32,000 nt of DNA from Desulfotalea psychrophila LSv54 (GTDB taxonomy: Bacteria; Desulfobacterota; Desulfobulbia; Desulfobulbales; Desulfocapsaceae). A program made the position numbers and the translations under genes. The stretch is taken from contig NC_006138.1 of the NCBI RefSeq assembly GCF_000025945.1, positions 570,001-602,000 on the forward strand, in the 5' to 3' direction. The notes below the pieces were generated by a model that ran no database searches, was not told the DNA's origin, and was given only the letters and a program-made list of their open reading frames with translations. This document shows, piece by piece, positions 11,125 through 30,386 of the stretch (positions within the stretch are counted from its first letter, which is position 1; each line of letters opens with the position of its first letter).

Positions 11125-11433
11125 ATCCTAAAGCTATCCCTTCCCCCTTATCTATTGATGAGATAAGAATTATCAGAGTTTAGGGTAGAGGCTCGCGGTT
11201 GGGAAGTCTCTCGCTCAGATACAGGGGGTATTACTGGGAGGTTATACCGAGGCCACATCTCTAGCATATTGGCCTATAAAAAATCAATAGTATTTACCAG
11301 TTAAAATTTTTCCCTAGGGGAAAAAACCCTCCGATCCAGCGACTCTCTCTCCACCTCCCCCTTGTTTTCCCTCTATACTCAGCATAAACTGATGAATACC
11401 CTAAAAAATCAAACCCTACCGTTGAGAATAATT

Positions 11434-11940: not shown

Positions 11941-12516
11941 CTATTCTATATCCAGATCGTATTTGCTGAGCAGGCCATCCAACCCCATCATGGAAAATTT
12001 TGCCTTTTTCAGCCTGTTGGCATCGGGATCTATGCAGAAGTAGAAGGCAGAACGAAAATCGGCCTTTATCAGAGTCGTACCCTCAAAGGCAGCGCCCTGC
12101 AGATCACAGTCGGCAAAAAGCGCCGCCGTCAGATTTGCCCCGACAAAATCCACCTCTTCAAGCCGACAGTCCCGAAAGCTGGTCTTCTGGATCTCCAATC
12201 CCCGAAAGGAAGAGAAATCAAGAATACAGGTATCAAAGGAGAAGGAGATAAGAAAGGAGTTACAGAGGTCAAAACGCATCCCCAGTAACTTACAGTCCTT
12301 AAACGCCACGTCCCGAAGGGTAACACCATCGATCTTGGCCGAGGAAAGATCGCAATTTTCAAAACGACAGTTAATAAAAACAGAGCCAGCCAGAGAGGCA
12401 GAGGCCCAGTTACAAGCGGTAAAGAGACAACCTTCATATTCGGCGAGAGGAAAACTCATCTCCCGAAAATCCTGCTGCTCAAAAATTTGTTCTTCTATAT
12501 ATTTCATACTATCCAC
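11941..12516 (-). CDS. Pentapeptide-repeat protein
   Basis: 191 aa of tandem A(D/N)LxX-type pentapeptides (CRFENCDLSSAKIDGVTLRDVAFKDCKLLGMRFDLCN...). Its stop codon abuts the gpx stop. Confidence 0.8.
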   Translation of the reverse strand: MDSMKYIEEQIFEQQDFREMSFPLAEYEGCLFTACNWASASLAGSVFINCRFENCDLSSAKIDGVTLRDVAFKDCKLLGMRFDLCNSFLISFSFDTCILDFSSFRGLEIQKTSFRDCRLEEVDFVGANLTAALFADCDLQGAAFEGTTLIKADFRSAFYFCIDPDANRLKKAKFSMMGLDGLLSKYDLDIE

Positions 12517-13098: not shown

Positions 13099-14580
13099 CT
13101 AAACAGCTGCTGCCAAGCGACGCTTTTTAATGATCTGCCAAACAGGCGTGGCAATAAGGACAACTATAACAGCCCAAAGGCCCAAGGCCTGGGGACTGGC
13201 AAAGAAGATAGAATAACTACCATGCCCCATAATAAGTGCCTGAGCAAATCCTGTTTCGGCAATAGGACCCAGAATAAGACCGAGAATCAGGGCGCCGAGA
13301 GAGAAACCAGCCCGATGGAGGAGTACCGCTGTAATACCGCAGGCAAGAGCGACAAAGATATCAAAGAGACTGTTATTCATCGCATATGCCCCCAAAACAG
13401 AGAAGAGGCAGACAACAGGGATCAGCAAATTGATCGGGGTCAAGGCAATTTTGGCAAAATAGGGCGCCATGCAGAGGCCCATCACCAGAAAGACCAGATT
13501 GGCCACAAATAGGGAGAGAATAAAGGCATAGGTCATGGTGCCGTGGACGGTAAAGAGATCCGGCCCGGGAATAAGTCCATGGACAAGCAAGCCACCGAGC
13601 AGAGCAGCCGCTACACTGTTACCCGGAATACCCAGGGTAAGGGTGGGGATGAGAGAACCACCGACACAACCATTATTTCCAGCCTCAGCAGCTGCAATCC
13701 CCTCGGGATTGCCATGGCCAAAGAGCTCTTTGTTCTTCGAGCGCTGTCTGGCAATATTATAGGACAAAAAGGCGGCAATGGTTGCCCCCTCGCCCGGCAG
13801 AATACCAACAACCGTGCCCACAATGGACCCGGTACCAATGAACTTAGCAAGACCCTTGGGCATGGGTTCCCTCTTCATCTTGGTCAGCTTACTGGTATCG
13901 GCAACGATATTTTTTTCACCGGTCAGCTCCAACATCTGAGAGATAGAGAAGAGACCAATGAGGGCTGGCATAAAGGCAACCCCGTCAAAAAGATCAGTAA
14001 TGCCTCCAGTATAGCGCAACATCCCCGAAATGGGATCTGTACCCACCACTGCTACAACAAGGCCAAGCAGACCTGAAATAAGCGCCTTGATAAGACGACT
14101 TTCATCCTCAGCCATGGAGACAATTCCCGCCAGACCGAGAAGGGCGAGAAGGAAATATTCCGGTGGACCGAAGCTCAGGGCAAAGGAGGCCAGAATAGGT
14201 GCCACCAGGAGAAGCACCAGGGTGGAAAATGTTCCACCGACAAAACTAGAGATAACAGAAACCTTAAGCGCCAATCCTCCCTGCCCCTTCTGGGTCATGG
14301 GATAGCCCTCAAGAGCGGTGGCAACGGCAGCCGGAGTCCCTGGGGTCCGCAACAGAATAGCAGGAATAGAGCCACCGTACATGGCGCCACAGTAAACACC
14401 ACCCATAAGGAGCAAACCTGTGAGCGGTTCTAAGGCAAAGGTAATGGGGATCAAAAGGGCAACCGCCATGGTAGCTGTAAGTCCGGGCATTCCACCTACC
14501 AGAACACCCGATACTGTACCAATAAACACTGCAAGCAGTGAAATCGGTGTCATGAGTTGAGTAAAGGCATCAACAAGCAT
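13099..14580 (-). CDS. tctA: Tripartite tricarboxylate transporter large permease TctA
   Basis: 493-aa polytopic membrane protein with typical TctA sequence (GMPGLTATMAVALLIP..., GYPMTQKGQGG). It lies in tctC-tctB-tctA order. Confidence 0.85.
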   Translation of the reverse strand: MLVDAFTQLMTPISLLAVFIGTVSGVLVGGMPGLTATMAVALLIPITFALEPLTGLLLMGGVYCGAMYGGSIPAILLRTPGTPAAVATALEGYPMTQKGQGGLALKVSVISSFVGGTFSTLVLLLVAPILASFALSFGPPEYFLLALLGLAGIVSMAEDESRLIKALISGLLGLVVAVVGTDPISGMLRYTGGITDLFDGVAFMPALIGLFSISQMLELTGEKNIVADTSKLTKMKREPMPKGLAKFIGTGSIVGTVVGILPGEGATIAAFLSYNIARQRSKNKELFGHGNPEGIAAAEAGNNGCVGGSLIPTLTLGIPGNSVAAALLGGLLVHGLIPGPDLFTVHGTMTYAFILSLFVANLVFLVMGLCMAPYFAKIALTPINLLIPVVCLFSVLGAYAMNNSLFDIFVALACGITAVLLHRAGFSLGALILGLILGPIAETGFAQALIMGHGSYSIFFASPQALGLWAVIVVLIATPVWQIIKKRRLAAAV

Positions 14581-14601
14581 TATTTTCCTCGTTCGGATCG
14601 A

Positions 14602-15054
14602 TTAGGTAAACCAGATACGCTCTGGCAGAGGCACTGAAAGTAGTTGTTCAAAGACAAGGTAGACAAAGAACAGCACTCCTGCTGATGTCAGGACAATACC
14701 TAGCTTTTTACGGGCGCCGAGGGTGATCATGCCCGCAGGAAGAAACAGGGCTGAGGCCATATAGAAACCAAGGGGTTCCAGGGCAACTGAATAGAGAAGA
14801 AGAAGGGCCAAAATCCCCCAAAAACGGAGCGGTGCCTTGCTGATAATGACCTTATCTCTTCCCGCACCTACCTTTGAGAGGCAGAGAAAAAATTCAGCCG
14901 CACAGAGCAGACCAAGTGACAGGGCAAGGAAACGAACATAGTTAGCCGTTGAACCCTGTACGCTCTCAGGATAACTTGCCGTGCTTCTATAAAGAAGCAC
15001 GGCAAGAATCAAGAAGGCGCCTAGAAATAATAGTTCCATTGCGCGTTTTGACAT
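14602..15054 (-). CDS. tctB: Tripartite tricarboxylate transporter small subunit TctB
   Basis: 150-aa protein with 4 TM segments, located between tctC and tctA. Confidence 0.7.
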   Translation of the reverse strand: MSKRAMELLFLGAFLILAVLLYRSTASYPESVQGSTANYVRFLALSLGLLCAAEFFLCLSKVGAGRDKVIISKAPLRFWGILALLLLYSVALEPLGFYMASALFLPAGMITLGARKKLGIVLTSAGVLFFVYLVFEQLLSVPLPERIWFT

Positions 15055-15060
15055 AGCTCT

Positions 15061-16002
15061 CTACCAGGGATTGTTATCATAGAAAGATTGGGTTTCTGCT
15101 TTAAGCTCTAGCAAATACTTAAGATATTCAGCACCATTCAGGGGCCAAAGAGTAAAGACCTGCTTGGTGCACTCGGCAATGAAGGTGGGATCTTTTTGCA
15201 CCTGAGCAAGAAGGTCATCAAGCTTGGCAAGAATTGCAGGATCAACCTGAGCAGGGGCAACAAAACCACGGGTGGCGGTCATGGTTACCTCAAAACCCTG
15301 CTCGATTGCAGTTGGAACGTCAGCAATAATCGGAGAACGACTCCCATCAAGAATAGCAATAATACGCGCCTTGCCAGCCTTATGCTGCGCCTGCAGCTGA
15401 GAGAGATTCATGATACTTGCATCAACGTGGGCGCCAAGAATCATTGCCTTTTGCTCGGTTGAGCCCTTGGTTGGCATAAGGTTAAATTTTATGTCTGCCA
15501 TTTTCTCAATCTTTTTGGCCGCAATAAAGTCATCGGAACCAATGCCGTTTACAGCAGTGGTAAGACTACCTGCCTTGGCGGCCTTAATGAACTGGGACAT
15601 ATTGGTGATATTGCTATCGGTGGGCACGGCAACAATCAAAGGATCCTGCATAACGTTACCCATTACATGAAAGCTATCAAGGGTATAACGGGCGCGCTTG
15701 GAAACAATGTGAGCCACAACCTGGGTGGTAAAAACCATACCAATGGTATGTCCATTTGCCTTGGCTCGGGCAATTTCTTCAAAACCCTTTTGACCACCAG
15801 AACCAGGAACATTCTTGATGACAAAGTTTGCCTCAGGCCAGAATTTCTTGGCTGATTGAATAAAGAGACGGGCAGAAGCATCGGTGGAGCCACCGGCCTT
15901 GGAAGGAACAATAATAGTAATAGGTTTCTTACCAGGATAGTCCTTGGCAAGAGCGGGCATGGCAAACATCAAAATAGCCAACAAAATCAAAATCTTCTTC
16001 AT
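15061..16002 (-). CDS. tctC: Tripartite tricarboxylate transporter substrate-binding protein TctC (Bug family)
   Basis: 313 aa with a signal peptide and the Bug/TctC hallmarks PGKKPITIIVPSKAGGSTD and NVPGSGG. An AGGAGA SD is present. Confidence 0.85.
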   Translation of the reverse strand: MKKILILLAILMFAMPALAKDYPGKKPITIIVPSKAGGSTDASARLFIQSAKKFWPEANFVIKNVPGSGGQKGFEEIARAKANGHTIGMVFTTQVVAHIVSKRARYTLDSFHVMGNVMQDPLIVAVPTDSNITNMSQFIKAAKAGSLTTAVNGIGSDDFIAAKKIEKMADIKFNLMPTKGSTEQKAMILGAHVDASIMNLSQLQAQHKAGKARIIAILDGSRSPIIADVPTAIEQGFEVTMTATRGFVAPAQVDPAILAKLDDLLAQVQKDPTFIAECTKQVFTLWPLNGAEYLKYLLELKAETQSFYDNNPW

Positions 16003-16926: not shown

Positions 16927-18318
16927 CTAAGAGCTTATCCCGTATTTTTTTACCTTTCGGGAAAGAGTCGAACGTTCTACCTTAAAGACCTTGGCCAGGC
17001 TTGAGATAGAATCATGATTCTGCATGCCATAGCGTATGGCCTCTTTCTCCACCGCCTCCATAATATCCTTGAGACTTTTACCACGAAAAAATTTTTCCAA
17101 ATGAAGATCTAAGCCAGCCACCTGCTCACCTTGATCTATATCTCCCCCCTGGCCCCTGTGAATATCCTGTATGGCAAGAGGAAGATCTGCCAGACCAATG
17201 GCTTCATTCTCACAGCTTACCACCAGGCTGAGTATGATGTTTTCAAGTTCCCAAACATTACCTGGCCACTGATAGAGAGACATTGCCTCTTCAACTTCAG
17301 GCAACAAACGGAGCCTACGCTGGTACTGAAGACAAAATCTTTCGAAAAACATATGCGCAAGCGGAATTATATCGACCTTACGTTCACGCAGTGGCGGGAT
17401 ATGAGAAACAGCAACTCGCAGACGATAAAAAAGATCCTGCCTGAAACGCCCCGCCTTCACCTCTTCCTCTAAATTCCGACGGGTTCCGGCAATAATACGC
17501 ACATCGCCTCGTCCATCCTGAAGTGCCTCTAGCAGGCGACTCTGGAGGGGGAGAGGCAGTTCACCAATTCCATCCAGAAAAAGAGTGCCATGCTCGGCAG
17601 CCGTTAAAAACCCCACGCTATCCCCAATATCTATACCTGAAAACTTCTTCGATACTTGATCGACTAGCTCTGACTCTTCAAAATTCTCAGCAATATGGGT
17701 ACAATCAATTTTAAAGAATTTTTTGTCCCGACGGGGACTCATTTCATGTATTTTTCTGGCGAGAATATCCTTGCCTACCCCTGGCTCTCCCAATAACAAA
17801 ATTGTTGCATCGGTGCTCGCTACCCACTCAAGTCTCTGTAAGAGATCCAACATCCCCGAACTCTGAGCCACCAAACGATGCTCTTTAGAGAGAAGTTCCT
17901 CTTTGACCTTGCTGGCCCGCTCGCCCCGACCTGCCTCGGAGCTGTGGGTGACATCACGCACAAAGGTCACCACAAGCTCTACTTCTCCATGGACATCAAA
18001 CAGAGGATGCTCCGCAAGCAGAATCTTCTTGTCACCAACAAGCTGCACGCTGCTGAAGCTCTCACCCGTCCGCACAATTCCAGCATGCTCTACGCCAACA
18101 AAGATACCATCTGCATCAAGGTCATAGACACTCCTGGCCAAAAGATCCTCAGCACGAAGCCCCATCAGCTCTTCGTAGGCCCTATTCAGAGCAAGGGTGA
18201 TTCCCTCTCGATTAGTTATATACAGACCATCAGTGCATAAATTAAAAATTCCAGAGAGATTGTCAGCAATGCGTTGACGATATTCGGGACAAATATATTT
18301 TGAAATTAAACCGGCCAT
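16927..18318 (-). CDS. PAS / AAA+ (sigma-54-interaction-like, degenerate) / Fis-type HTH transcriptional regulator
   Basis: 463 aa. It has an N-terminal PAS-like region (DGLYITNREGITLALNRAYEELMGL), Walker A GEPGVGKD and a C-terminal HTH_8 (ISSLAKVFKVERSTLSRKVKKYGI). Where GAFTGA is expected it reads KFSGID. Walker B reads LFLDG instead of LFLDE. The segment after LLEALQDG is shortened to RGDVR. Confidence 0.85.
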   Translation of the reverse strand: MAGLISKYICPEYRQRIADNLSGIFNLCTDGLYITNREGITLALNRAYEELMGLRAEDLLARSVYDLDADGIFVGVEHAGIVRTGESFSSVQLVGDKKILLAEHPLFDVHGEVELVVTFVRDVTHSSEAGRGERASKVKEELLSKEHRLVAQSSGMLDLLQRLEWVASTDATILLLGEPGVGKDILARKIHEMSPRRDKKFFKIDCTHIAENFEESELVDQVSKKFSGIDIGDSVGFLTAAEHGTLFLDGIGELPLPLQSRLLEALQDGRGDVRIIAGTRRNLEEEVKAGRFRQDLFYRLRVAVSHIPPLRERKVDIIPLAHMFFERFCLQYQRRLRLLPEVEEAMSLYQWPGNVWELENIILSLVVSCENEAIGLADLPLAIQDIHRGQGGDIDQGEQVAGLDLHLEKFFRGKSLKDIMEAVEKEAIRYGMQNHDSISSLAKVFKVERSTLSRKVKKYGISS

Positions 18319-18470: not shown

Positions 18471-18513
18471 AAAAAAAAGCCCCTATCTTCTGTTCTCACA
18501 GAGGCTAGGGGCT
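18471..18513 (-). terminator. Rho-independent terminator after cassette copy 1 (ald)
   Basis: On the minus strand the stem AGCCCCUAGCCUCUG-UGAGAA-CAGAAGAUAGGGGCU is followed by U8 (plus-strand A8 at 18471..18478). Confidence 0.7.
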
Positions 18514-18600
18514 AAAACAAAAACTCTACCAGATTGGTGGGGCAGGAGATCCTCCCCCGCCTCTATGCCAATAGGGCCTAATCTGTTTTTGAGGTATTCT

Positions 18601-19716
18601 CTATGCGAGAACCTCTTCTACTGGGGTGTAAGGCATGTCGAATGCATCACATACACCTTTGAAGGTAAGTTTTCCTTCGTGTACGTTCAAACCAAGTGCA
18701 AGAGCGTGGTTGTCCTGACATGCTTTTTTCCAACCTTTGTTTGCAAGTTGTACTGCAAATGGGAGGGTTGCATTGGTAAGAGCCATGGTAGAGGTCAAAG
18801 GTACTGCGCCAGGGATGTTAGCAACACAGTAATGAACGATCTCGTCTACAACGTAGGTAGGATCGGTGTGAGTGGTAGGCTTAGAGGTCTCAAAACAACC
18901 ACCTTGATCGATAGCAACATCAACAATAGCAGTCTTAGGACGCATAAGTTTAAGATCTGCGCGGGTAAGTACTGAAGGAGCCTTAGCGCCTGGGATAAGT
19001 ACCGCACCAACCACAAGGTCAACCTGTGGAAGAAGCTCGTGGATAGCAGCTTTAGAAGACATGATGGTGGTACAGTTAGCAGGCATTACATCTTCAAGAT
19101 AACGAAGACGATCAAGGTTGATGTCAAGAAGGTAAACTTGAGCGCCAAGTCCACAAGCCATCTTAGCAGCCTGAACACCAACAACACCACCACCGATAAC
19201 CATGATTTTAGCTGGAGCAACACCCGGTACACCACCGATGAGTTTGCCAATTCCGCCGTTTACAGCCTCGAGAGCCTTAGCACCCTGCTGAATTGCCATA
19301 CGACCAGCAACCTCAGACATTGGGGTAAGAAGAGGAAGTGAACGATCTGCCATTTGAACAGTCTCGTAAGCGATACAGGTAGCGCCAGATGCAACCAAAC
19401 CATCGGTTTGTGGCTTATCTGCTGCCAAGTGAAGGTAAGTGAAAACGATTTGACCTTTACGGATCATTGCGTACTCAGAAGGCTGTGGCTCTTTAACGTG
19501 CATTACCATATCAGCTTTTGCATAAACATCTGCAGCTGCATCAATGATGGTAGCGCCTGCTGCTACGTATTCTGCATCAGAGAAACTAGAACCAAGACCA
19601 GCACCTTTCTCTACAATTACATCGTGACCATTAGCTACCATGGTTACAACTCCGCCAGGGGTCATACAAACACGATCTTCTTTGATTTTAATTTCTTTTA
19701 AGATACCTACAATCAT
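18601..19716 (-). CDS. ald: L-alanine dehydrogenase (copy 1)
   Basis: 371 aa. MIVGILKEIKIKEDRVCMTPGGV... matches the AlaDH/PNT family, with a Rossmann fold VMVIGGGVVGVQAA. An AGGAGAAG SD is present. Confidence 0.9.
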   Translation of the reverse strand: MIVGILKEIKIKEDRVCMTPGGVVTMVANGHDVIVEKGAGLGSSFSDAEYVAAGATIIDAAADVYAKADMVMHVKEPQPSEYAMIRKGQIVFTYLHLAADKPQTDGLVASGATCIAYETVQMADRSLPLLTPMSEVAGRMAIQQGAKALEAVNGGIGKLIGGVPGVAPAKIMVIGGGVVGVQAAKMACGLGAQVYLLDINLDRLRYLEDVMPANCTTIMSSKAAIHELLPQVDLVVGAVLIPGAKAPSVLTRADLKLMRPKTAIVDVAIDQGGCFETSKPTTHTDPTYVVDEIVHYCVANIPGAVPLTSTMALTNATLPFAVQLANKGWKKACQDNHALALGLNVHEGKLTFKGVCDAFDMPYTPVEEVLA

Positions 19717-19775
19717 TTTACTTCTCCTAAATTATTAACGTATATAAATAACTGCTACTTATAAATGGGTACTAC

Positions 19776-21155
19776 TTATTTTTGATCAGCAAAAGCCAGA
19801 TCAAGAGCATTTATAACTTCATCAATCTCAGTTTTGCTGGAGATCAATGCAGGGCTAAATGCAAGGGTGTTGTTGTGCTTCTCAAAAGATCGATTAGTAC
19901 GACCAATGATAACACGACTCTTAGCTGCACAGTGACCCGCAACACCTGCGGCAACAGACTCATCAACAGGCTCTTTGGTTGTACGATCTTTAACAAGCTC
20001 AAGACCTTGAAAGAGACCTTTACCACGAACATCGCCAATGATTTCGTACTTATCTTTAAGCTCGAAAAGACGATCAGAAAAGTAATCTCCCATCTTAACA
20101 ACATTGTCAAGAAGATTCTCACGAATGATGATGGCCATGTTCTCAAGAGCGGCTGCAGGACCTGCGGTACATCCACCAAAGGTAGAGATATCACGAAAGT
20201 AATGCATTTTATCACTTGGATCAGCCTTGAAACGATCAAATACAGCCTCGGTGGTTGTGGTACAAGAGATACCTGCGTATCCACTTGCTACACCCTTGGC
20301 CATGGTAACCATGTCAGGAACTACATCAAAGTGCTGATAACCAAACCACTTACCGGTACGACCAAGACCACATACAACCTCATCAATGTGAAGAAGTACG
20401 CCATGACGATCACAGATCTCACGGATGATTGGGAAGTACTCTGGTACAGGAACGATTACACCACCACCTGCGGTGATAGGCTCAAGAATGATTCCACCAA
20501 CGGTCTCTGGACCTTCCGCTTGGATGAGATCTTCAAGGGCATGAGCACACTCGATATTACATTCGCCATATTTTTTACCGAAAGGACAGCGGTAACAACA
20601 GCAGTTGGTAAGCTCAACAAAACCTGGAGCAAATGGACCATACTGTGCTTTACGCTCGAACTGACCGGTGGAGCTCAAAGCGCCAATGGTAGTTCCATGG
20701 TAGTCACGGTCGCGGTAGATGATCTTGTTCTTCTTGCCATCACCTTCAAGGTGAGCAAGCTGACGAATGATCTTAAAACACTTCTCATTTGCCTCAGAAC
20801 CTGAGTTTGAGTAGTAGACACGATCCATTCCTGGCATCTTGTCAAGAAGAGCTTCAGCAAACTGAGCGCCTGGAACACTACCTGCACTTCCTGCGAAGTA
20901 ACAGAGTTTTACCAACTGATCACGTACAGCATTGGCGATAGACTCACGACCATATCCAACGTTTACAGTCCAAACACCACCGGATACTGCATCAAGGAAC
21001 TCATTGCCGTTAGCATCCTTGATACGCATTCCCTTACCCTCAACAACTACCATAGGAGCAGCACCGTCTTTATCATAGGCGCTATGTTGAGTGAGGTGAT
21101 GCCAGCAATTTTTTTTATTTTGGGCGATAACTTTTTTCATTGCTTCTTGTGTCAT
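19776..21155 (-). CDS. Class-III (omega) pyridoxal-phosphate aminotransferase, probably pyruvate-dependent (copy 1)
   Basis: It has class-III aminotransferase features: SGSEANE, the HIDEV.GLGRTG region and the MAKG PLP-lysine motif. The track start at 21173 lies inside the SD. The ATG at 21155 (MTQEAMKK...) is preceded by TAGGAGAAG at proper spacing. Confidence 0.85.
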   Translation of the reverse strand: MTQEAMKKVIAQNKKNCWHHLTQHSAYDKDGAAPMVVVEGKGMRIKDANGNEFLDAVSGGVWTVNVGYGRESIANAVRDQLVKLCYFAGSAGSVPGAQFAEALLDKMPGMDRVYYSNSGSEANEKCFKIIRQLAHLEGDGKKNKIIYRDRDYHGTTIGALSSTGQFERKAQYGPFAPGFVELTNCCCYRCPFGKKYGECNIECAHALEDLIQAEGPETVGGIILEPITAGGGVIVPVPEYFPIIREICDRHGVLLHIDEVVCGLGRTGKWFGYQHFDVVPDMVTMAKGVASGYAGISCTTTTEAVFDRFKADPSDKMHYFRDISTFGGCTAGPAAALENMAIIIRENLLDNVVKMGDYFSDRLFELKDKYEIIGDVRGKGLFQGLELVKDRTTKEPVDESVAAGVAGHCAAKSRVIIGRTNRSFEKHNNTLAFSPALISSKTEIDEVINALDLAFADQK

Positions 21156-21227
21156 GATACTTCTCCTATTCATCCATCTATTAAGAAAGGAGGTGCCTGG
21201 AGTAATCCAGACACCTTCTACTATTTC

Positions 21228-22382
21228 CTAGAAATGTTTTTCCAACATGGTCAAGAGTTGCTTCTCATTACCCTGACGTGGATTATTATCCATCAAACGC
21301 TTAGCTGCTGCAGCGCGGGTAGCAATTCCTGGCAGATCTTCTGCGGTCACACCATAAGGAGCAAGGCCTGGAGCAATATCAAGATCTTCAAGCATTTGCA
21401 CAAATGCATCTGCACAGTAAGCTGCGCGATCTTCTACTGGCTCGTCGCTCTCCACAACGTGGCTCAAGATATCAGCAACAACTGCATACTTCTCTGGGTT
21501 AGACATGTAGTTGTAATCGATACCGATTGGAGCTACTGCTGCCATAAGCAAACCGTGTGGCAACTTATACTTTGCAGGAACAGAGGTACCAACAGCGTGG
21601 ATAACACCGTTCTGGGTATTACCAAAACCCATTCCAGCAAGGGCAGAACCGTAAAGCATTGCCTCACGAGCCTCAAGATTATTACCGTTGGCATATGCCT
21701 TGCGGATATTCTTAGCAATAATCTTCATTGCCTGAAGATTAAGGGCATCCGTGAATGGAGTAGACATAAGGCCTACAAAGGATTCCATGGCGTGAACAAA
21801 GGCATCAACACCGGTCATTGCGGTTATATGTGGTGGAAGACCTGTAGTCAATGCTGGGTCAAGGATAACAGCAGATGCGTAGATATAGTCACTAACGATA
21901 CCAAGCTTTGCGCCGGTCTCGTTGTTGGTGAGTACAGAGATAGAGGTCATCTCGCTACCGGTACCAGCGGTGGTTGGCACTGCAATAAGTGGCATACATG
22001 GTCCAGGAACAACATCAACACCGAAATATTTAGAGATTGGACCTTCGTGAACGGCAAGAACGGATGCAGCCTTGGCGGTATCAAGAGCACTACCACCACC
22101 AAAACCGATGATAACGTCTGCCTTGAATTCCTTAGCAACATCAGCACAATGCTGAATAGAGGTTGCGTTTGGTTCAAGCTCTGCTTTTGCATAAAGAACA
22201 AATTCAATACCTGCATGGGCAAGAGCTTCCTCTACTGCAATGTGCAAACCCAGTGAAGCAAGACCTGGATCAGTCACGATGATGGCGCGCTTGCCACCAA
22301 GACGTTTTACCTCTTTACCTGCGTCAGCAATAGAGCCTGCACCGTGAACAATCTTACTTACGGATTTGAATGTATGGAGCAT
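21228..22382 (-). CDS. Iron-containing (group III) alcohol dehydrogenase / aldehyde reductase (copy 1)
   Basis: It has the Fe-ADH motifs GFGGGSALDTAKA and metal-binding His residues (VHAMESF, IHAVG). The track ORF starts at a GTG (22391). The ATG at 22382 (MLHTFKSV...) follows a GAAGGTG SD. Confidence 0.85.
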   Translation of the reverse strand: MLHTFKSVSKIVHGAGSIADAGKEVKRLGGKRAIIVTDPGLASLGLHIAVEEALAHAGIEFVLYAKAELEPNATSIQHCADVAKEFKADVIIGFGGGSALDTAKAASVLAVHEGPISKYFGVDVVPGPCMPLIAVPTTAGTGSEMTSISVLTNNETGAKLGIVSDYIYASAVILDPALTTGLPPHITAMTGVDAFVHAMESFVGLMSTPFTDALNLQAMKIIAKNIRKAYANGNNLEAREAMLYGSALAGMGFGNTQNGVIHAVGTSVPAKYKLPHGLLMAAVAPIGIDYNYMSNPEKYAVVADILSHVVESDEPVEDRAAYCADAFVQMLEDLDIAPGLAPYGVTAEDLPGIATRAAAAKRLMDNNPRQGNEKQLLTMLEKHF

Positions 22383-22531
22383 GTTAGTCACCTTCTGCTT
22401 TTATTATATAAATTACATAAACACTGCCAGCTACTCAGTGAGGGGCATCAGCCTCTCTTAGAAAGGCATGATAACTTGCTTAAGCATAGTCTCTTCCTTC
22501 GAAAGAAATCATCCTCAACCTTTATAATACA

Positions 22532-22547
22532 TGCAATGGACATGCCA
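22532..22547 (-). promoter_or_regulatory. Sigma-54 (-24/-12) promoter P1 for cassette copy 1
   Basis: The minus strand reads TGGCATGTCCATTGCA, which is TGGCAT-N5-TTGCA against the consensus TGGCAC-N5-TTGCW. It lies about 140 nt upstream of the ADH start. Confidence 0.8.
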
Positions 22548-22630
22548 TTCAAAAGAAAACTCTGTAACTACTTGTTTTTCTTTACTTTATCATAAGCACA
22601 AAATATCCTACCAAACAGCCATGAGTCAAT

Positions 22631-22674
22631 ATTGCATCGTTAACTACCACCAGCCCCAATCTTCGCGATGCAAT
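22631..22674. promoter_or_regulatory. Putative enhancer (UAS) for P1: 9-bp inverted repeat ATTGCATCG ... CGATGCAAT
   Basis: The arms are perfect, at 22631..22639 and 22666..22674, 85-130 bp upstream of the -24 element. The distal arm block CGATGCAAttTCAACT is conserved upstream of P2 at the same distance. Confidence 0.55.
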
Positions 22675-22918
22675 TTCAACTTACTTCCGAAATAACAAAA
22701 AAAGGAGGAGGAAAAAAGAGAACAGAAACAGGAGGAAAGAAGAGTCCTGCCAACCAGCAAAAAAAAACAAGCGAGGCAAGGTGAGATCACTTATAACATC
22801 GCAACATCGTCCAGCCAGAGAGGAAAGCCCAGGCGCAGAGAGCAGGAAAAACAAATTCATTTATCGGCCCTTTCAGGCAATTCTTTTTTGCATTAACTCC
22901 CAAAAAACGCAAGCCAGC

Positions 22919-22957
22919 AAAAAAAAATCCCCAGGCTCTAAAAAGAGCTTGGGGATT
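22919..22957 (-). terminator. Rho-independent terminator after cassette copy 2 (ald)
   Basis: On the minus strand the stem AAUCCCCAAGCUCU-UUUU-AGAGCCUGGGGAUU is followed by a U9 run (plus-strand A9 at 22919..22927). Confidence 0.75.
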
Positions 22958-23049
22958 CAGCAAGGAGCGACAACCCAAAAGAGAATGGAAACCTAAACTC
23001 CCACCCTCTATTCAACCAAGGCTACAACTTGCCTTTTTTGAGGTATTCT

Positions 23050-24165
23050 CTATGCGAGAACCTCTTCTACTGGGGTGTAAGGCATGTCAAATGCATCACA
23101 TACTGCTTTGAAGGTAAGTTTTCCTTCGTGTACGTTCAAACCAAGTGCAAGCGCTCTGTTGTCCTGACATGCTTTCTTCCAACCTTTGTTTGCAAGTTGT
23201 ACTGCAAATGGAAGGGTTGCATTGGTAAGAGCCATGGTAGAGGTCAAAGGTACTGCGCCAGGGATGTTAGCAACACAGTAATGAACGATCTCGTCTACAA
23301 CGTAGGTAGGCTCGGTGTGAGTGGTAGGCTTAGAGGTCTCAAAACAACCACCTTGATCGATAGCAACATCAACAACAGCAGTCTTAGGACGCATAAGTTT
23401 AAGGTCTGCGCGGGTAAGTACTGAAGGAGCCTTAGCGCCTGGGATAAGTACCGCACCAACCACAAGGTCAACCTGTGGAAGAAGCTCGTGGATAGCAGCC
23501 TTAGAAGACATGATGGTGGTACAGTTAGCAGGCATTACATCTTCAAGATAACGAAGACGATCAAGGTTGATATCAAGAAGGTAAACTTGAGCGCCAAGTC
23601 CACAGGCCATCTTAGCAGCCTGAACACCAACAACACCACCACCGATAACCATGATTTTAGCTGGAGCAACACCCGGTACACCACCGATGAGTTTGCCAAT
23701 TCCGCCGTTTACAGCCTCGAGAGCCTTAGCACCCTGCTGAATTGCCATACGACCAGCAACCTCAGACATTGGGGTAAGAAGAGGAAGTGAACGATCTGCC
23801 ATTTGAACAGTCTCGTAAGCGATACAGGTAGCGCCAGATGCAACCAAACCATCGGTTTGTGGCTTATCTGCTGCCAAGTGAAGGTAGGTGAAAACGATTT
23901 GACCTTTACGGATCATCGCGTACTCAGAAGGCTGTGGCTCTTTAACGTGCATTACCATATCAGCTTTTGCATAAACGTCTGCAGCTGCATCGATGATGGT
24001 AGCGCCTGCTGCTACGTATTCTGCATCAGAGAAACTAGAACCAAGACCAGCACCTTTCTCTACAATTACATCGTGACCATTAGCTACCATGGTTACAACT
24101 CCGCCAGGGGTCATACAAACACGATCTTCTTTGATTTTAATTTCTTTTAAGATACCTACAATCAT
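23050..24165 (-). CDS. ald: L-alanine dehydrogenase (copy 2)
   Basis: 371 aa, with 4 substitutions relative to copy 1 (I/V, D/E, H/R, G/A). Confidence 0.9.
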   Translation of the reverse strand: MIVGILKEIKIKEDRVCMTPGGVVTMVANGHDVIVEKGAGLGSSFSDAEYVAAGATIIDAAADVYAKADMVMHVKEPQPSEYAMIRKGQIVFTYLHLAADKPQTDGLVASGATCIAYETVQMADRSLPLLTPMSEVAGRMAIQQGAKALEAVNGGIGKLIGGVPGVAPAKIMVIGGGVVGVQAAKMACGLGAQVYLLDINLDRLRYLEDVMPANCTTIMSSKAAIHELLPQVDLVVGAVLIPGAKAPSVLTRADLKLMRPKTAVVDVAIDQGGCFETSKPTTHTEPTYVVDEIVHYCVANIPGAVPLTSTMALTNATLPFAVQLANKGWKKACQDNRALALGLNVHEGKLTFKAVCDAFDMPYTPVEEVLA

Positions 24166-24207
24166 TTTACTTCTCCTAAATTATTAACTTATATAAATGA
24201 ATATTAC

Positions 24208-25587
24208 TTATTTTTGATCAGCAAAAGCCAGATCAAGAGCATTTATAACTTCATCAATCTCAGTTTTGCTGGAGATCAATGCAGGACTGAAGGCAAGGGT
24301 GTTGTTGTGCTTCTCAAAGGATCGATTAGTACGACCAATGATAACACGACTCTTAGCGGCACAGTGACCCGCAACACCTGCGGCAACAGACTCATCAACA
24401 GGCTCTTTAGTGGTACGATCTTTAACAAGCTCAAGACCTTGAAAGAGACCTTTACCACGAACATCGCCAATAACTTCGTACTTATCTTTAAGCTCGAAAA
24501 GACGATCCTGGAAGTAATCTCCCATCTTAACAACATTATCAAGAAGGTTCTCACGAACGATGATGGCCATGTTCTCAAGAGCGGCTGCAGGACCTGCGGT
24601 ACATCCACCAAAGGTAGAGATATCACGAAAGTAATGCATTTTATCACTTGGATCAGCCTTGAAACGATCAAATACAGCCTCGGTGGTTGTGGTACAAGAG
24701 ATACCTGCGTATCCACTTGCTACACCCTTAGCCATGGTAACCATGTCAGGAACTACATCAAAGTGCTGATAACCGAACCACTTACCGGTACGACCAAGAC
24801 CACATACAACCTCATCAATTTGAAGAAGTACGCCATGACGATCACAGATCTCACGGATGATTGGGAAGTACTCAGGTACAGGAACAATTACACCACCACC
24901 TGCGGTGATAGGCTCAAGAATGATTCCGCCAACGGTCTCTGGACCTTCCGCTTGGATGAGATCTTCAAGGGCATGGGCACACTCGATATTACATTCGCCA
25001 TATTTTTTACCGAAAGGACAGCGGTAACAACAGCAGTTGGTAAGCTCAACAAAACCTGGAGCAAATGGACCATACTGCGCTTTACGCTCGAACTGACCGG
25101 TGGCACTGAGAGCACCAATGGTAGTTCCATGGTAGTCACGGTCGCGGTAGATGATCTTGTTCTTGGTGCCATCACCTTCAAGGTGAGCAAGCTGACGAAT
25201 GATCTTAAAACACTTCTCGTTTGCCTCAGAACCTGAGTTTGAGTAGTATACACGACCCATTCCTGGCATCTTATCAAGAAGAGCTTCAGCAAACTGAGCA
25301 CCAGGAATACTACCTGCACTTCCTGCGAAGTAACAGAGTTTTACCAACTGATCACGTACAGCATTGGCGATAGACTCACGACCATATCCAACGTTTACAG
25401 TCCAAACACCACCGGATACTGCATCAAGGAACTCATTGCCGTTAGCATCCTTGATACGCATTCCCTTACCCTCAACAACTACCATAGGAGCAGCACCGTC
25501 TTTATCATAGGCGCTATGTTGAGTGAGGTGATGCCAGCAATTTTTTTTATTTTGAGCGATAACTTTTTTCATTGCTTCTTGTGTCAT
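24208..25587 (-). CDS. Class-III (omega) aminotransferase (copy 2)
   Basis: It shows 8 substitutions relative to copy 1. The ATG at 25587 is preceded by the same AGGAGAAG SD. Confidence 0.85.
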   Translation of the reverse strand: MTQEAMKKVIAQNKKNCWHHLTQHSAYDKDGAAPMVVVEGKGMRIKDANGNEFLDAVSGGVWTVNVGYGRESIANAVRDQLVKLCYFAGSAGSIPGAQFAEALLDKMPGMGRVYYSNSGSEANEKCFKIIRQLAHLEGDGTKNKIIYRDRDYHGTTIGALSATGQFERKAQYGPFAPGFVELTNCCCYRCPFGKKYGECNIECAHALEDLIQAEGPETVGGIILEPITAGGGVIVPVPEYFPIIREICDRHGVLLQIDEVVCGLGRTGKWFGYQHFDVVPDMVTMAKGVASGYAGISCTTTTEAVFDRFKADPSDKMHYFRDISTFGGCTAGPAAALENMAIIVRENLLDNVVKMGDYFQDRLFELKDKYEVIGDVRGKGLFQGLELVKDRTTKEPVDESVAAGVAGHCAAKSRVIIGRTNRSFEKHNNTLAFSPALISSKTEIDEVINALDLAFADQK

Positions 25588-25660
25588 GATACTTCTCCTA
25601 TTCAATCCATCTACAGAGAAAGGAGGTGCCTGGAATCATCCAGACACCTTCTACTATTTC

Positions 25661-26815
25661 CTAGAAGTGCTTTTGCAACATGGTCAAGAGTTGTTTCTCG
25701 TTACCTTGGCGTGGATTATTATCCATCAAACGCTTGGCTGCGGCGGCGCGGGTAGCGATTCCTGGCAGATCTTCCTCGGTTACACCGTAGGGAGAAAGGC
25801 CTGGAGCAATATCAAGATCTTCAAGCATTTGCACAAATGCATCTGCACAATAAGCGGCACGATCTTCTACCGACTCTTCACCAGCCACAACGTGGGTAAG
25901 GATATCAGCAACAACTGCATACTTCTCTGGGTTAGCCATATAGTTGTAATCGATACCAATTGGAGCTACTGCTGCCATAAGCAAACCGTGTGGCAACTTA
26001 TACTTTGCAGGAACAGAGGTACCAACAGCGTGGATAACACCGTTCTGGGTATTACCAAAACCCATACCAGCAAGAGCAGAACCGTAAAGCATCGCCTCAC
26101 GAGCCTCAAGATTATTACCGTTGGCATATGCCTTACGGATATTCTTAGCAATAATCTTCATCGCCTGAAGATTAAGGGCATCTGTGAATGGAGTAGACAT
26201 AAGGCCTACAAAGGATTCCATGGCGTGAACAAAGGCATCAACACCGGTCATTGCAGTTATATGTGGTGGAAGACCTGTAGTCAATGCTGGGTCAAGAATA
26301 ACAGCAGCTGCGTAGATATAGTCACTAACGATACCAAGTTTTGCGCCGGTCTCGTTGTTGGTGAGTACAGAGATAGAGGTCATCTCGCTACCGGTACCAG
26401 CGGTGGTTGGCACTGCAATAAGTGGCATACATGGTCCAGGAACAACATCAACACCGAAGTATTTAGAGATTGGACCTTCGTGAACGGCAAGAACGGATGC
26501 AGCCTTGGCGGTATCAAGAGCACTACCACCACCAAAACCGATGATAACGTCTGCGTTAAAAGCCTTAGCAGCATCAGCACAGTCTTGAATAGAGGTTGCA
26601 TTTGGTTCAAGCTCTGCCTTGGCGTAAAGAACAAACTCAATACCAGCAAGAGCCAATGCCTCTTCCACAGCTACATGCAAACCAAGTGAAGCAAGACCTG
26701 GATCAGTTACGATAATGGCACGCTCGCCACCAAGACGTTTCACCTCTTTACCTGTGTCAGCAATAGATCCTGCACCGTGAACGATCTTACTTACAGATTT
26801 AAATGTATGAAGCAT
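25661..26815 (-). CDS. Iron-containing alcohol dehydrogenase / aldehyde reductase (copy 2)
   Basis: It has the same motifs as copy 1. The ATG at 26815 follows a GAAGGTG SD, with an alternative GTG at 26824. It differs from copy 1 at about 18 residues. Confidence 0.85.
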   Translation of the reverse strand: MLHTFKSVSKIVHGAGSIADTGKEVKRLGGERAIIVTDPGLASLGLHVAVEEALALAGIEFVLYAKAELEPNATSIQDCADAAKAFNADVIIGFGGGSALDTAKAASVLAVHEGPISKYFGVDVVPGPCMPLIAVPTTAGTGSEMTSISVLTNNETGAKLGIVSDYIYAAAVILDPALTTGLPPHITAMTGVDAFVHAMESFVGLMSTPFTDALNLQAMKIIAKNIRKAYANGNNLEAREAMLYGSALAGMGFGNTQNGVIHAVGTSVPAKYKLPHGLLMAAVAPIGIDYNYMANPEKYAVVADILTHVVAGEESVEDRAAYCADAFVQMLEDLDIAPGLSPYGVTEEDLPGIATRAAAAKRLMDNNPRQGNEKQLLTMLQKHF

Positions 26816-26857
26816 ATTAATCACCTTCTACGTTTTATAGTTAATATTTATATTAGC

Positions 26858-28345
26858 TTACGCTTCTTTGGATGCTGGCTGCTGAGCCGGAGCTTTTTTA
26901 CCTTTACCAAAGAAAACTCGACGTGAACTTCCTAAAATGAGAGTACTCTGCTCTTCCGTGGTAAGGGCTTTAAAATCACCCATTCTTGCATTATAGAACC
27001 AAGCGCCAAGGATAACCCAGAGACAGAGAGCAACCCAAGACTGCATGCCAATGGCACCGGGTGAACCCGGAACGGTAAGAAGCAAAATACAGACAACAGA
27101 ACTAATTGAGCCAAGCACTGCATGCATAACACCTCTCTTATTCTGGGCATGCTTCATTACCTTATAGGCACTGAGGCAAGAGATAAGATAGGCAATAACA
27201 GTACCGACAGCAGACATATCAACAACCCAATTCAATACTTCACGACCAAAGAAGGGCGCGGTTACGGCAATGGCAAGAACAAAGAGGATCGCCTTATGAG
27301 GGGTTTGGTATTTTGGATGGATATCAGCAAACCAAGATGGCAGGATGGTTGCCCGACCCATGGCAAAGAGCAGACGAGAAGATGCAATAAAGAAACCATT
27401 GATTCCGGTAAAGATTGCGGCAAGAACAGCAGTGGCAAGAATCACACTACCAACCCGACCAAGGGCCATGTTTGCTACGGTTCCGGTAGCCCAGGGGCTA
27501 TTCATGGCGAGAAGCTCTTTATATGGCATGATGCAGGCAACGGCGATGGTTACCATTGCATAAAGGACAATGCCCCAGCCAATTGCGGAAAGCATGAGCT
27601 TTTCAGCGCGCTTGTGCGGGAAGTCGAATTCCTCAGCTGCCTGAGGAATGGTATCAAAACCCACATAGAGCCATGGTGCAATGGCAACAATGGCCATAAT
27701 ACTGGCAAGCGGGCTCTTGTTATCAGCAAAAAGAGGAGAGAGGTTAGAAACAGCTGCAGTCTCATGGGAAACGGAACCGCCGAAAACAATAAAGACACTA
27801 GCACAGAGGGCAAAGGCAAGGAATACCTGAATCTTACCAACAAGATCTGCGCCACGGAAATTCAAAAACCCACAAAGACAGAGTATGCCGACCAGCATGG
27901 CTATCTCACCTGCATAGACATCCCAGCCAACAATGGAGTACAGCATCCCTACTTCAAAGACGCCCGGGAAAACAAAACGGGTCAGCAGAGAGACAGCTGT
28001 CGCATTCAGGGCAATGATACAGATATAACCAAGCACAAGGGCCCATCCACAGATAAAGGCCACGGTGGGACCAAAACCAACAAAGGAGAAGGCAAAAGCT
28101 CCGCCGGTCACCTTGTACTTACTCACCATATTTCCGTAACTGATTGCCACGGAAAACAGCATTACACCACCCAGAACAAAACCGATGCAAGAGGCAAGTG
28201 GCCCGGCCTGAGGCAAAAAGCGTAGACCTGGTAAGACAAATGCACCCCATCCAAGAATCGCACCCAAGGCGAGGGCCCAAGCCTGAACGGGCTTAATCGA
28301 CTTCTTCAATTCTGCTCTTTCAGTCACTGCTGCTTTCTTATCCAT
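26858..28345 (-). CDS. APC-superfamily amino acid/amine permease
   Basis: About 495 aa with roughly 12 TM segments and a typical APC N-terminus (VQAWALALGAILGWGAFVLPG). The ATG at 28345 (MDKKAAV...) follows a GGGAG SD. The track start at 28375 is a TTG. The gene stops 42 nt upstream of ADH copy 2. Confidence 0.8.
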   Translation of the reverse strand: MDKKAAVTERAELKKSIKPVQAWALALGAILGWGAFVLPGLRFLPQAGPLASCIGFVLGGVMLFSVAISYGNMVSKYKVTGGAFAFSFVGFGPTVAFICGWALVLGYICIIALNATAVSLLTRFVFPGVFEVGMLYSIVGWDVYAGEIAMLVGILCLCGFLNFRGADLVGKIQVFLAFALCASVFIVFGGSVSHETAAVSNLSPLFADNKSPLASIMAIVAIAPWLYVGFDTIPQAAEEFDFPHKRAEKLMLSAIGWGIVLYAMVTIAVACIMPYKELLAMNSPWATGTVANMALGRVGSVILATAVLAAIFTGINGFFIASSRLLFAMGRATILPSWFADIHPKYQTPHKAILFVLAIAVTAPFFGREVLNWVVDMSAVGTVIAYLISCLSAYKVMKHAQNKRGVMHAVLGSISSVVCILLLTVPGSPGAIGMQSWVALCLWVILGAWFYNARMGDFKALTTEEQSTLILGSSRRVFFGKGKKAPAQQPASKEA

Positions 28346-28494: not shown

Positions 28495-28510
28495 TGCAAA
28501 GCCCATGCCA
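28495..28510 (-). promoter_or_regulatory. Sigma-54 (-24/-12) promoter P2 for permease + cassette copy 2
   Basis: The minus strand reads TGGCATGGGCTTTGCA (TGGCAT-N5-TTGCA). It lies about 150 nt upstream of the permease ATG. Confidence 0.8.
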
Positions 28511-28586: not shown

Positions 28587-28637
28587 AATGCATCCTAAAC
28601 TCATTTAATCGAATTAGCCACATATTTACGATGCAAC
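28587..28637. promoter_or_regulatory. Putative enhancer (UAS) for P2: AATGCATCC ... CGATGCAAC
   Basis: Half-sites lie at 28587..28595 and 28629..28637. CGATGCAAcaTCAACT starts exactly 120 bp from the -24 GG, as it does at P1. Confidence 0.5.
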
Positions 28638-29045: not shown

Positions 29046-29757
29046 ATGAAAGAGAAAACACTTCAGGCTATTTACCAAACCTTTAATCAATGGAACGATG
29101 GTGAAAAATCCTGCCACAGGGGTTGCTCCACCTGCTGCACGCAAAATATCACTGTCACAGCAACAGAGGCCGAACTTATACATAAGTTCGCAGTAGAAGA
29201 GGACAAACAGGAGTGGCTGGCTGAAATACTTTCCGCAAAACGTGACCTCGAAAAACCCAAGATGACCACCAACGACTTCGCCAAGGCCTGTTTGGAAGGA
29301 AGAGACGTAGACCCCGGCACCATGGGGCTCCCTTGCCCCCTGCCCATTCCTCAAAGAGAACATCTGCCAAATCTACTCGGTACGCCCCTTTGCCTGCCGT
29401 GCCTTTGTCTCAAGTTCACCCTGCAGTCAGAATGAACCTGCGACCATCTCAGAAGGCTACGCAGCAACGGTTACAGCGGTAAGCCAGATAATTGAGCACC
29501 TTGGCCAAAAAGAGTACTGGGGAAATTTATTCGATGTCCTTATTGCCATGTCGGATATCTCTGCGTATAAAGAGACTGCAGAAAAATTGACTGCAGTAGA
29601 GACATTTAACGCTCGCCTGAGAACACTTACAGCTAAACCGTTGACGGGCTTCCTGCTTACCGAAGAAGATTTACAGGTAGCAGGCCCACTGCTTCAGTCC
29701 ATTTTTTCCACCAAAGTGGATGAAAAAAGCATAGAAGACATACTTAACGGAAAATAA
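29046..29757 (+). pseudogene. YkgJ/UPF0153-type CxxCxxCC Fe-S/Zn-binding protein, reading frame broken by a +1 shift
   Basis: Frame A (29046..) encodes ...CHRGCSTCC... Frame B (open 29311..29757) encodes ...CPFLKENICQIYSVRPFACRAF..., the second hallmark motif of the family. The two frames can only be joined between 29311 and about 29340, where a C5 run lies (29336..29340). Confidence 0.7.
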
Positions 29758-29768
29758 GGAAACAGACC

Positions 29769-30386
29769 ATGACCAACAAGACCACAGTTCATTTAACAAT
29801 CATGCTGCCAGCAGGGCGCCTTCCCCTCGATGTCATGAAGACAGCCCAAGCTCTTGCTGAACAATATAAGCTTGAAATTTTCTTCACAACTGCCCAAAAC
29901 CTTCGCCTCCTCAATGTACCAGAGAATCTTGTTGAAGAAATCAAAGCGCCTCTCTTGGCACTTGGCGTGACCTTTAAGGCCCCCGGTGGCTTTCCACTGC
30001 CACGAATTTGCGTTGGCGCCCCACACTGTCCTGGCGGAAACGGAGCAACCGATAAGCTCTCTGCAAAAATCCTCGACAAATTCAGTAAACGTGAAAAAAC
30101 CAAGGCAAAATTTAAAATTGCCATCTCCGCCTGTTCCACTGGATGTTCAAATCCAAGAACAACAGATATCGGTATTGTCATGGGCCCCAAGGGCCTCACC
30201 CTATATCTCGGCGGCAAGGGAGGCGTTAGCCCACAGACAGGGATTCGTGTTCTAAAGGATGTAAGCGAAGAGACACTGCTGAACGCCATCGAAACCTTAG
30301 TTGAGTTTCATGACAAAAAAACTGAAAAGAAACAAAGAATTGCCAAATTATTAGACGATCCTGAATTCCCCTTTGCTCAAATATAA
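29769..30386 (+). CDS. Small siroheme/[4Fe-4S]-type nitrite/sulfite reductase-like protein (low-molecular-weight assimilatory-type SiR candidate)
   Basis: 205 aa with the NIR_SIR cluster motif Cys-X5-Cys (CVGAPHC) ... Cys-X3-Cys (CSTGC). An AGGA SD is present. It starts 11 nt after the preceding gene. Confidence 0.7.
   Translation: MTNKTTVHLTIMLPAGRLPLDVMKTAQALAEQYKLEIFFTTAQNLRLLNVPENLVEEIKAPLLALGVTFKAPGGFPLPRICVGAPHCPGGNGATDKLSAKILDKFSKREKTKAKFKIAISACSTGCSNPRTTDIGIVMGPKGLTLYLGGKGGVSPQTGIRVLKDVSEETLLNAIETLVEFHDKKTEKKQRIAKLLDDPEFPFAQI

Follow-up and report, generated by a model that had tools for sequence, protein, structure and literature searches.

A tandemly duplicated, sigma-54-promoted gene cassette for probable taurine-to-isethionate conversion in Desulfotalea psychrophila LSv54

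What substrate is served by a set of aminotransferase, alanine dehydrogenase and alcohol dehydrogenase genes that stands twice in tandem, each time with a predicted sigma-54 promoter ahead of it, is the question raised by the locus DP0539–DP0549 of Desulfotalea psychrophila LSv54, a bacterium which we take to belong to the Desulfobulbales. The locus lies in a 32-kb stretch of the chromosome (NC_006138.1, positions 570,001 to 602,000), referred to here as the window, and all coordinates are counted from its first nucleotide. In our reading, to which we give a probability of about 0.8, the locus encodes the first part of the anaerobic taurine pathway of the type found in Bilophila wadsworthia, the part that leads from taurine to isethionate. 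It is a known gene set found in D. psychrophila and not a new pathway; its one unusual feature, a tandem duplicate that has a predicted sigma-54 promoter of its own, leaves the mechanism of the pathway unaltered.

The aminotransferase, alcohol dehydrogenase, alanine dehydrogenase, regulator and permease encoded in the window are 100% identical to CAG35268–CAG35276 (DP0539–DP0547). Seven of these genes make up the cassette and all are on the minus strand, in the following order by coordinate: ald-A (DP0540, alanine dehydrogenase, 18601..19716), tpa-A (DP0541, candidate taurine:pyruvate aminotransferase, 19776..21155 from the RefSeq start, with a longest open reading frame (ORF) of 19776-21173), sarD-A (DP0542, sulfoacetaldehyde reductase, 21228..22382 from the RefSeq start, longest ORF 21228-22391), ald-B (DP0544, 23050..24165), tpa-B (DP0545, 24208..25587, longest ORF 24208-25605), sarD-B (DP0546, 25661..26815, longest ORF 25661-26824) and the APC-family permease gene DP0547 (26858..28345). 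They form two units, termed P2 (permease, sarD, tpa, ald and a terminator) and P1 (sarD, tpa, ald and a terminator), so named after the promoters described below. With the RefSeq starts Tpa has 459 aa, SarD has 384 aa and the permease begins at an ATG at 28345, the end coordinate already given in an earlier, sequence-only reading of this DNA. Domain assignments of the cassette genes are backed by Pfam and NCBIfam, with TIGR00518 for ald-A, Aminotran_3 for tpa-A and NF050025 for both sarD copies, and by identity to copy A for ald-B and tpa-B.

The identity of the alcohol dehydrogenase bears most directly on the substrate. NF050025, the equivalog model for SarD, has a cutoff of 700 bits, and copies A and B score 723.6 and 728.3, alongside 752.8 for the B. 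wadsworthia SarD and 722.6 for that of Halodesulfovibrio. Paralogues of the iron-dependent alcohol dehydrogenase (Fe-ADH) family that are not SarD reach 325–509 bits (460–509 for those linked to IslA), well under 700, and the cutoff therefore discriminates. The D. psychrophila protein is 63% identical to B. wadsworthia SarD, RefSeq names both copies sulfoacetaldehyde reductase, and the Fe-ADH ligands of sarD-A (D196, H200, H265 and H279) are invariant together with a GGGS motif (alignment A2). Other alcohol dehydrogenase models stay far under their cutoffs, with 220.9 against 500 for 4-hydroxybutyrate dehydrogenase (NF058672) and 245 against 523 for lactaldehyde reductase.

The aminotransferase is, by sequence comparison, orthologous to B. 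wadsworthia Tpa, with 60% identity over 448 aa (full length) and the pyridoxal phosphate-lysine motif VTMAKGVASGYA kept. Its best NCBIfam model, NF005812, falls just below cutoff, and B. wadsworthia Tpa has the same best model and score profile; as the characterised enzyme is equally sub-cutoff, NCBIfam evidently holds no Tpa-specific model. None of the BioA, ArgD, GabT-type or 'aspartate aminotransferase family' models reaches its cutoff either, with those for BioA, ArgD and GabT-type enzymes falling far short, so that a place among the housekeeping aminotransferases, which the sequence-only reading had named as grounds for abandoning the taurine assignment, was not found. Homologues 65–73% identical to Tpa carry the JGI label taurine-pyruvate aminotransferase. 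Ald, the product of the final gene of each unit, scores 497.7 bits with the equivalog TIGR00518 (cutoff 391.85) and is 52% identical to B. wadsworthia Ald. A search of the PDB returned no solved structure of SarD or Tpa.

Both copies of Tpa also contain a cluster of cysteines, NCCCYRCPFGKKYGECNIEC (C-x-C-x2-C-x8-C-x3-C), at residues ~191-209 of the 465-aa ORF. It is kept in 106 of the 120 closest homologues and is absent from B. wadsworthia Tpa, and may represent a clade-specific metal or Fe-S site.

That taurine to isethionate through Tpa, Ald and SarD is the best fit had been proposed from the letters alone, and it is supported by the SarD cutoff, by the identities to Tpa and SarD and by synteny. 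The companion claim, that conversion of γ-aminobutyrate (GABA) to 4-hydroxybutyrate or of β-alanine to 3-hydroxypropionate would fit equally well, has to be given up in view of the 4-hydroxybutyrate dehydrogenase score and of the aminotransferase models. The domains of a class-III aminotransferase, Ald and Fe-ADH are by themselves compatible with a different ω-amine (GABA, β-alanine, hypotaurine or homotaurine), the aminotransferase reaches no NCBIfam cutoff, and the 19 residue differences between the SarD copies could be taken to mean that the copies have diverged in substrate. Against this, both alcohol dehydrogenases pass the SarD cutoff and fail those for 4-hydroxybutyrate dehydrogenase and lactaldehyde reductase, B. 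wadsworthia Tpa shares the sub-cutoff profile, the copies differ by just 9 residues in Tpa and 4 in Ald with a dN/dS of ~0.1, and synteny with the characterised cluster extends across >40 loci. We consider another amine, or a division of substrates between the copies, very unlikely.

The pathway with which the locus is compared was worked out in the human-gut pathobiont B. wadsworthia, where Tpa transaminates taurine with pyruvate, giving sulfoacetaldehyde and alanine, Ald restores the pyruvate, a co-encoded Fe-ADH (SarD, alias TauF) reduces sulfoacetaldehyde to isethionate with NADH, and sulfite is set free by IslAB, whose genes stand in a separate cluster (PMC6386719, PMC6453916). By analogy, taurine imported by DP0547 would donate its amino group to pyruvate through Tpa, yielding sulfoacetaldehyde and alanine; Ald would return the alanine to pyruvate with release of NH4+ and NADH; and SarD would spend the Ald-derived NADH on the reduction of sulfoacetaldehyde to isethionate. 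Summed up as taurine + H2O -> isethionate + NH4+, the reactions would be neutral in NADH and in pyruvate, and with both balanced the three genes would therefore constitute a self-contained module. We infer both taurine as the substrate and the redox-neutral balance from the identities of the enzymes.

The two organisms share the clustering of the same three enzymes in one operon (Tpa 60%, SarD 63% and Ald 52% identical), as well as a sigma-54-type promoter and an upstream 15-mer that is discussed below. The B. wadsworthia locus consists of dctMQP and a gene for a PAS-type sigma-54 activator, then divergently ald-tpa-sarD, with a TGGAAC-N5-TTGCT promoter and the shared 15-mer preceding ald. In D. 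psychrophila, by contrast, the order is sarD-tpa-ald, an APC permease takes the place of the TRAP transporter DctPQM, the enzyme block is present twice, and the canonical activator is not adjacent. The hosts also differ, B. wadsworthia being a gut member of the Desulfovibrionaceae and D. psychrophila a marine psychrophilic sulfate reducer.

Closer relatives of the operon are found elsewhere. The order permease-sarD-tpa-ald recurs in Halodesulfovibrio spp. (68–85% aa identity), in two uncultured contigs and in Desulfosediminicola ganghwensis (75–80%), of a genus presumably in the same family as Desulfotalea. Gene order, transporter type and an upstream sigma-54 promoter are common to the operons of the two named genera and to that of D. 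psychrophila, but in Halodesulfovibrio and Desulfosediminicola the cassette is single copy and has beside it a gene for a full-length canonical enhancer-binding protein (EBP) of 577–588 aa. A literature search found no paper on the permease-sarD-tpa-ald operons of these two genera. As for the permease itself, DP0547 matches the Pfam families AA_permease and AA_permease_2, reaches no NCBIfam equivalog, and has orthologues (50–75% identity) adjoining the cassette in Halodesulfovibrio, Desulfosediminicola and several Desulfovibrionaceae metagenome-assembled genomes; on this synteny it is a putative taurine importer.

Two other types of taurine pathway share part of this chemistry. The ammonia-releasing pair of Tpa and Ald is also used in the Tpa-Ald-Xsc pathway of Taurinivorans muris (PMC10507020) and Ruegeria pomeroyi, in which sulfoacetaldehyde is cleaved by Xsc without SarD (T. 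muris has neither sarD nor islAB; PMC10507020), whereas the window has SarD and no Xsc. The Toa-IsfD and Toa-TauF clusters of Klebsiella oxytoca, Chromohalobacter salexigens and Bifidobacterium kashiwanohense likewise proceed from taurine through sulfoacetaldehyde to isethionate, but with a 2-oxoglutarate-dependent aminotransferase, without Ald and with export of the isethionate, and their reductase is either an SDR (IsfD) or a TauF that is just 28% identical to SarD (PMC6616044). A cluster of this Toa type was considered for D. psychrophila and rejected, as the reductase is of the SarD type, the PDB Toa entry 6jix gives just 188 bits against Tpa, and the window has no TauE or IsfE homologue.

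What becomes of the isethionate is the next question, and the sequence-only reading had left it open in view of the lack of islAB and xsc in the window. None was found there by our searches either, but the question is open only in part. Table S1 of Peck et al. 2019 includes the D. psychrophila protein WP_011190268.1 among glycyl-radical enzymes (GREs) at least 62% identical to IslA (PMC6386719); judging from the accession offset it would correspond approximately to DP3023, far from the cassette. D. psychrophila also has two GRM1 microcompartment loci, the second of them atypical (Axen et al. 2014, PMC4207490). In Desulfosediminicola, unlike D. psychrophila, the cassette is contiguous with a TRAP transporter, IslA and IslB, followed by a 483-aa EBP, TauE, a 205-aa NIR_SIR protein and a 577-aa EBP, and the IslA of this locus scores 1524 bits with the D. 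vulgaris IslA 5ymr and 1215 with the 2,3-dihydroxypropane-1-sulfonate (DHPS) lyase 6lon. From the literature and from this relative's locus, isethionate is most likely cleaved by an IslA/IslB glycyl-radical lyase encoded elsewhere on the chromosome, and the released sulfite would feed dissimilatory sulfite reduction.

The same three enzymes could instead serve nitrogen assimilation or deamination only, with taurine as an ammonium source and isethionate excreted. By itself the module would produce nothing beyond isethionate and NH4+, the window lacks islAB, xsc and any sulfite exporter gene, and sigma-54 promoters are classically tied to nitrogen control. Pathways that excrete isethionate are documented in K. 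oxytoca TauN1 and C. salexigens and proposed in B. kashiwanohense (PMC6616044), but these use the 2-oxoglutarate-dependent Toa with IsfD or TauF and an exporter, and not Tpa, Ald and SarD, and SarD-type clusters are known from dissimilation. Moreover, Desulfosediminicola has the same cassette beside IslAB, a predicted IslA-type GRE of D. psychrophila has been listed, and a sigma-54 promoter also drives the cassette in the taurine-respiring Bilophila. A role confined to nitrogen supply is unlikely, and dissimilation of taurine by way of isethionate remains the reading that we prefer.

A possible link to sulfite lies within the window itself. DP0549 (29769..30386, plus strand), divergent from the permease operon, encodes a small, 205-aa sulfite/nitrite-reductase-like protein with the Pfam domains NIR_SIR_ferr and NIR_SIR and a C-x5-C ... 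C-x3-C pattern, which we take to be one that binds siroheme and [4Fe-4S]. An orthologue, 58.5% identical, stands beside TauE inside the taurine/isethionate locus of Desulfosediminicola, a further likeness between the two loci. The connection between the cassette and this neighbouring gene that had been drawn from sequence alone thereby gains synteny support, within one family only, and DP0549 may act in sulfite handling. Two small ORFs upstream of it (29046-29435 and 29548-29757) gave no family match.

How the two units are transcribed is indicated by exact matches to the sigma-54 -24/-12 consensus ahead of each, on the coding strand and in intergenic DNA, at an upstream distance of ~150-165 nt from sarD-A and from the permease gene. 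These predicted promoters are P1 (TGGCATGTCCATTGCA, 22532..22547, minus strand) and P2 (TGGCATGGGCTTTGCA, 28495..28510, minus strand), and the 32 kb contain no other exact match to TGGCAY-N5-TTGCW (shuffled sequence is expected to give 0.15 matches, and two were reached in 1 of 100 shuffles). Each unit ends in an intrinsic terminator on the minus strand: after ald-B, parting the two units, there is a stem-loop with a run of nine U (22917..22958, -26.1 kcal/mol, z = -3.4), and after ald-A one with a run of eight (18471..18513, -22.3 kcal/mol, z = -2.5). Coordinates, promoters and terminators agree with the earlier description of seven co-oriented genes in two transcription units, each opening with a sigma-54 promoter and closing with a terminator after ald.

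Of 24 related loci, 22, Bilophila included, likewise have a sigma-54 promoter ahead of the cassette, and this type of control is therefore not special to D. psychrophila. Upstream of P1 there are candidate activator sites, namely an inverted pair with TTGCATCG / CGATGCAA and an exact ATGCAATATTGACTC (22624..22681, minus strand), and upstream of P2 there is another TTGCATCG element (28629..28636, minus strand); TTGCATCG stands exactly 125 nt upstream of the -24 element at both promoters. The putative site ATGCA-W3-TTGACTC, exact at P1, recurs as a 15-mer with at most two mismatches in 16 of 29 upstream regions (27 related loci together with P1 and P2), that of B. wadsworthia among them.

Within each unit a hairpin lies directly 3' of the sarD stop codon, at 21191..21216 for sarD-A (minus strand, no U-run, -21.8 kcal/mol, z = -4.0) and at 25624..25649 for sarD-B (minus strand, -22.0 kcal/mol, z = -4.3). 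Where relatives share the gene order, they too have GC-rich hairpins at this position, though not homologous ones, which suggests a conserved intra-operon RNA element with a role in stability, processing or partial termination. An Rfam search of the window returned no known RNA family.

Which protein would activate these promoters is not answered by the nearest regulator gene. DP0539 (16927..18318, minus strand) encodes a PAS + AAA+ + helix-turn-helix (HTH) regulator of the sigma-54-activator family that is degenerate, with just 134 bits for the Pfam model Sigma54_activat. In an alignment with NtrC1 and 13 EBPs linked to the cassette or to isl, its GAFTGA is replaced by KKFSGI and its Walker-B LDE by LDG, and ~11 residues of the pre-sensor-I loop are lost; the GAFTGA loop, the Walker-B glutamate and the pre-sensor-I loop are kept in every cassette-linked or isl-linked relative examined. 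The position of the Walker-B glutamate, a glycine in DP0539, is the one mutated to alanine in the NtrC1 entry 3m0e. The HTH of DP0539 differs and is not orthologous to those of the EBPs, its identity to the cassette-linked activators is 31–33%, and its best relative is an isl-linked 483-aa EBP (37%). As judged from this alignment, the adjacent DP0539 is not equipped to activate sigma-54. It could be a gene in decay, or act as a TyrR-like sigma-70 regulator or as a negative modulator. A more specific proposal, that DP0539 is a natural ATPase-impaired, GAFTGA-less paralogue that modulates both taurine promoters by competing for sites or by poisoning hexamers of the distant activator DP0355, seems to us improbable; if it were true, the duplication would amount to a two-promoter system with tunable dosage and not to simple redundancy.

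A more suitable activator is encoded ~184 genes away from the cassette. The cassette-adjacent activators of related loci form an orthologous group (47% identity over the full length between those of B. wadsworthia and L087, a Logan contig that returns below), and their HTH is nearly invariant (GSTYKAAK-LKVSQSTIVRKAQRY). DP0355 (CAG35084, 574 aa) is 58% identical to the Halodesulfovibrio-type cassette-linked EBP, contains PAS, and has GAFSGA, LDEIGEL and the conserved HTH. It would drive both P1 and P2, each unit having its own sigma-54 promoter and upstream sites. A tblastn search upstream of P2 found no remnant of an activator gene, and a literature search on sigma-54 with taurine and Bilophila gave nothing relevant.

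The remaining question is why the enzymes are encoded twice. The repeat (~18586-22400 against ~23035-26833) comprises the 3.8-kb enzyme block sarD-tpa-ald and leaves the promoter regions outside. Between copies A and B, nucleotide identity is 98.3% for ald, 97.1% for tpa and 92.8% for sarD, and amino-acid identity 98.9%, 98.1% and 95.1%, respectively. There are 153 substitutions at ungapped positions, and flanks and promoters differ; the duplication is therefore not an assembly artefact, and the earlier description of a duplicated cassette was correct. Near-identical tandem repeats are in general prone to misassembly, and it might alternatively be supposed that one copy is a decaying, unexpressed remnant. 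However, besides the 153 differences and the distinct flanks, all six duplicated enzyme ORFs are intact, dN/dS is 0.10-0.13 across the three gene pairs (0.11 for tpa), each copy has its own terminator and exact sigma-54 promoter, and the copies are entered separately in GenBank and RefSeq within a single chromosome record of 3,523,383 bp. An artefact or a remnant is extremely improbable.

The substitutions are not evenly spread. They are clustered in a mosaic (index of dispersion 4.5, against at most 2.1 in 2000 permutations) and the longest identical run between the copies is 281 nt (P = 0.0005), the pattern expected of gene conversion between old paralogues that have been partly homogenised. 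Such gene conversion would explain why the two promoter regions resemble each other far less than the coding regions do. Over the first and the last 300 nt of sarD the two copies differ by 10-18%. The dN/dS values indicate that both copies are held by purifying selection and, together with gene conversion, they make it probable that both copies are expressed. The benefit of the duplication is plausibly a higher enzyme dosage; in T. muris, both Tpa and Ald rank within the thirteen most abundant proteins (PMC10507020).

A tandem second copy was found in none of ~90 related loci (80 contigs from genomes, 6 from metagenomes and 4 retrieved through protein identity; D. psychrophila itself was not among the contigs returned by the genome scan), and the metagenome scan returned no relative above 84% identity. 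The earlier statement that two separately sigma-54-promoted copies are an undescribed arrangement stands.

A separate observation concerns the history of the cassette. The ald gene is 90% identical at the nucleotide level (94.6% aa) to the Logan contig L087:8390-9515, whereas the sarD-tpa part of L087 is just 74% identical, and from this contrast the history of the cassette appears mosaic, with a recent exchange of ald between lineages. The idea that copy A was imported together with a promoter of the L087 type was ruled out, as the L087 homology begins at the sarD start codon.

Several points weigh against our reading of the locus. A literature search brought up no D. psychrophila enzyme, growth or expression data on taurine, and a search by locus tag nothing relevant on the locus. 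The DP0547 permease has no characterised relative, and the substrate specificity assigned to Tpa is extrapolated from 60% identity. Neither IslAB, Xsc and TauE nor an IsfE homologue is encoded in the 32-kb window, and Table S1 of Peck et al. (PMC6386719) also covers 'other C-S cleaving GREs', among which WP_011190268.1 could be a DHPS lyase. On the regulatory side, DP0355 is the likely activator of P1 and P2 by orthology, and the 15-mer is weak at P2, with only two matches of three mismatches each.

The remainder of the window adds little to this picture. Immediately downstream of DP0539 is a TctCBA tripartite tricarboxylate-type transporter (13099-16002, minus strand); it was considered as part of the taurine system, for which the evidence is too weak, with Tct homologues of 27–41% identity in 2 of the 90 loci (the SarD-containing L040 and L051). 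From 128 to 12516 the genes are of housekeeping type and unrelated to the cassette: a GspE-like ATPase (128-1651), an M48 peptidase with TPR repeats (2044-3861), two large ORFs (3880-8380) that by their sequence are presumably SbcC/SbcD-like, Pfs (methylthioadenosine/S-adenosylhomocysteine nucleosidase) and LuxS (8967-10163), a glutathione peroxidase (11362-11940) and a pentapeptide-repeat protein (11941-12516).

The D. psychrophila locus does not change the understanding of how the pathway works. Its meaning lies in where the pathway is found: the Tpa/Ald/SarD route to isethionate comes from work on a gut organism (PMC6386719, PMC6453916), and a complete, duplicated cassette in an Arctic-sediment sulfate reducer places it in cold marine sediments. 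The single copies in Halodesulfovibrio and Desulfosediminicola point in that direction too. Taurine is an abundant osmolyte in cold marine sediments, where it could supply sulfite for respiration, and the prediction is that D. psychrophila uses taurine. The conserved PAS-type sigma-54 activator, represented here by DP0355, would together with the site upstream of the promoters mark out a regulon of the taurine pathway that has not been described before.

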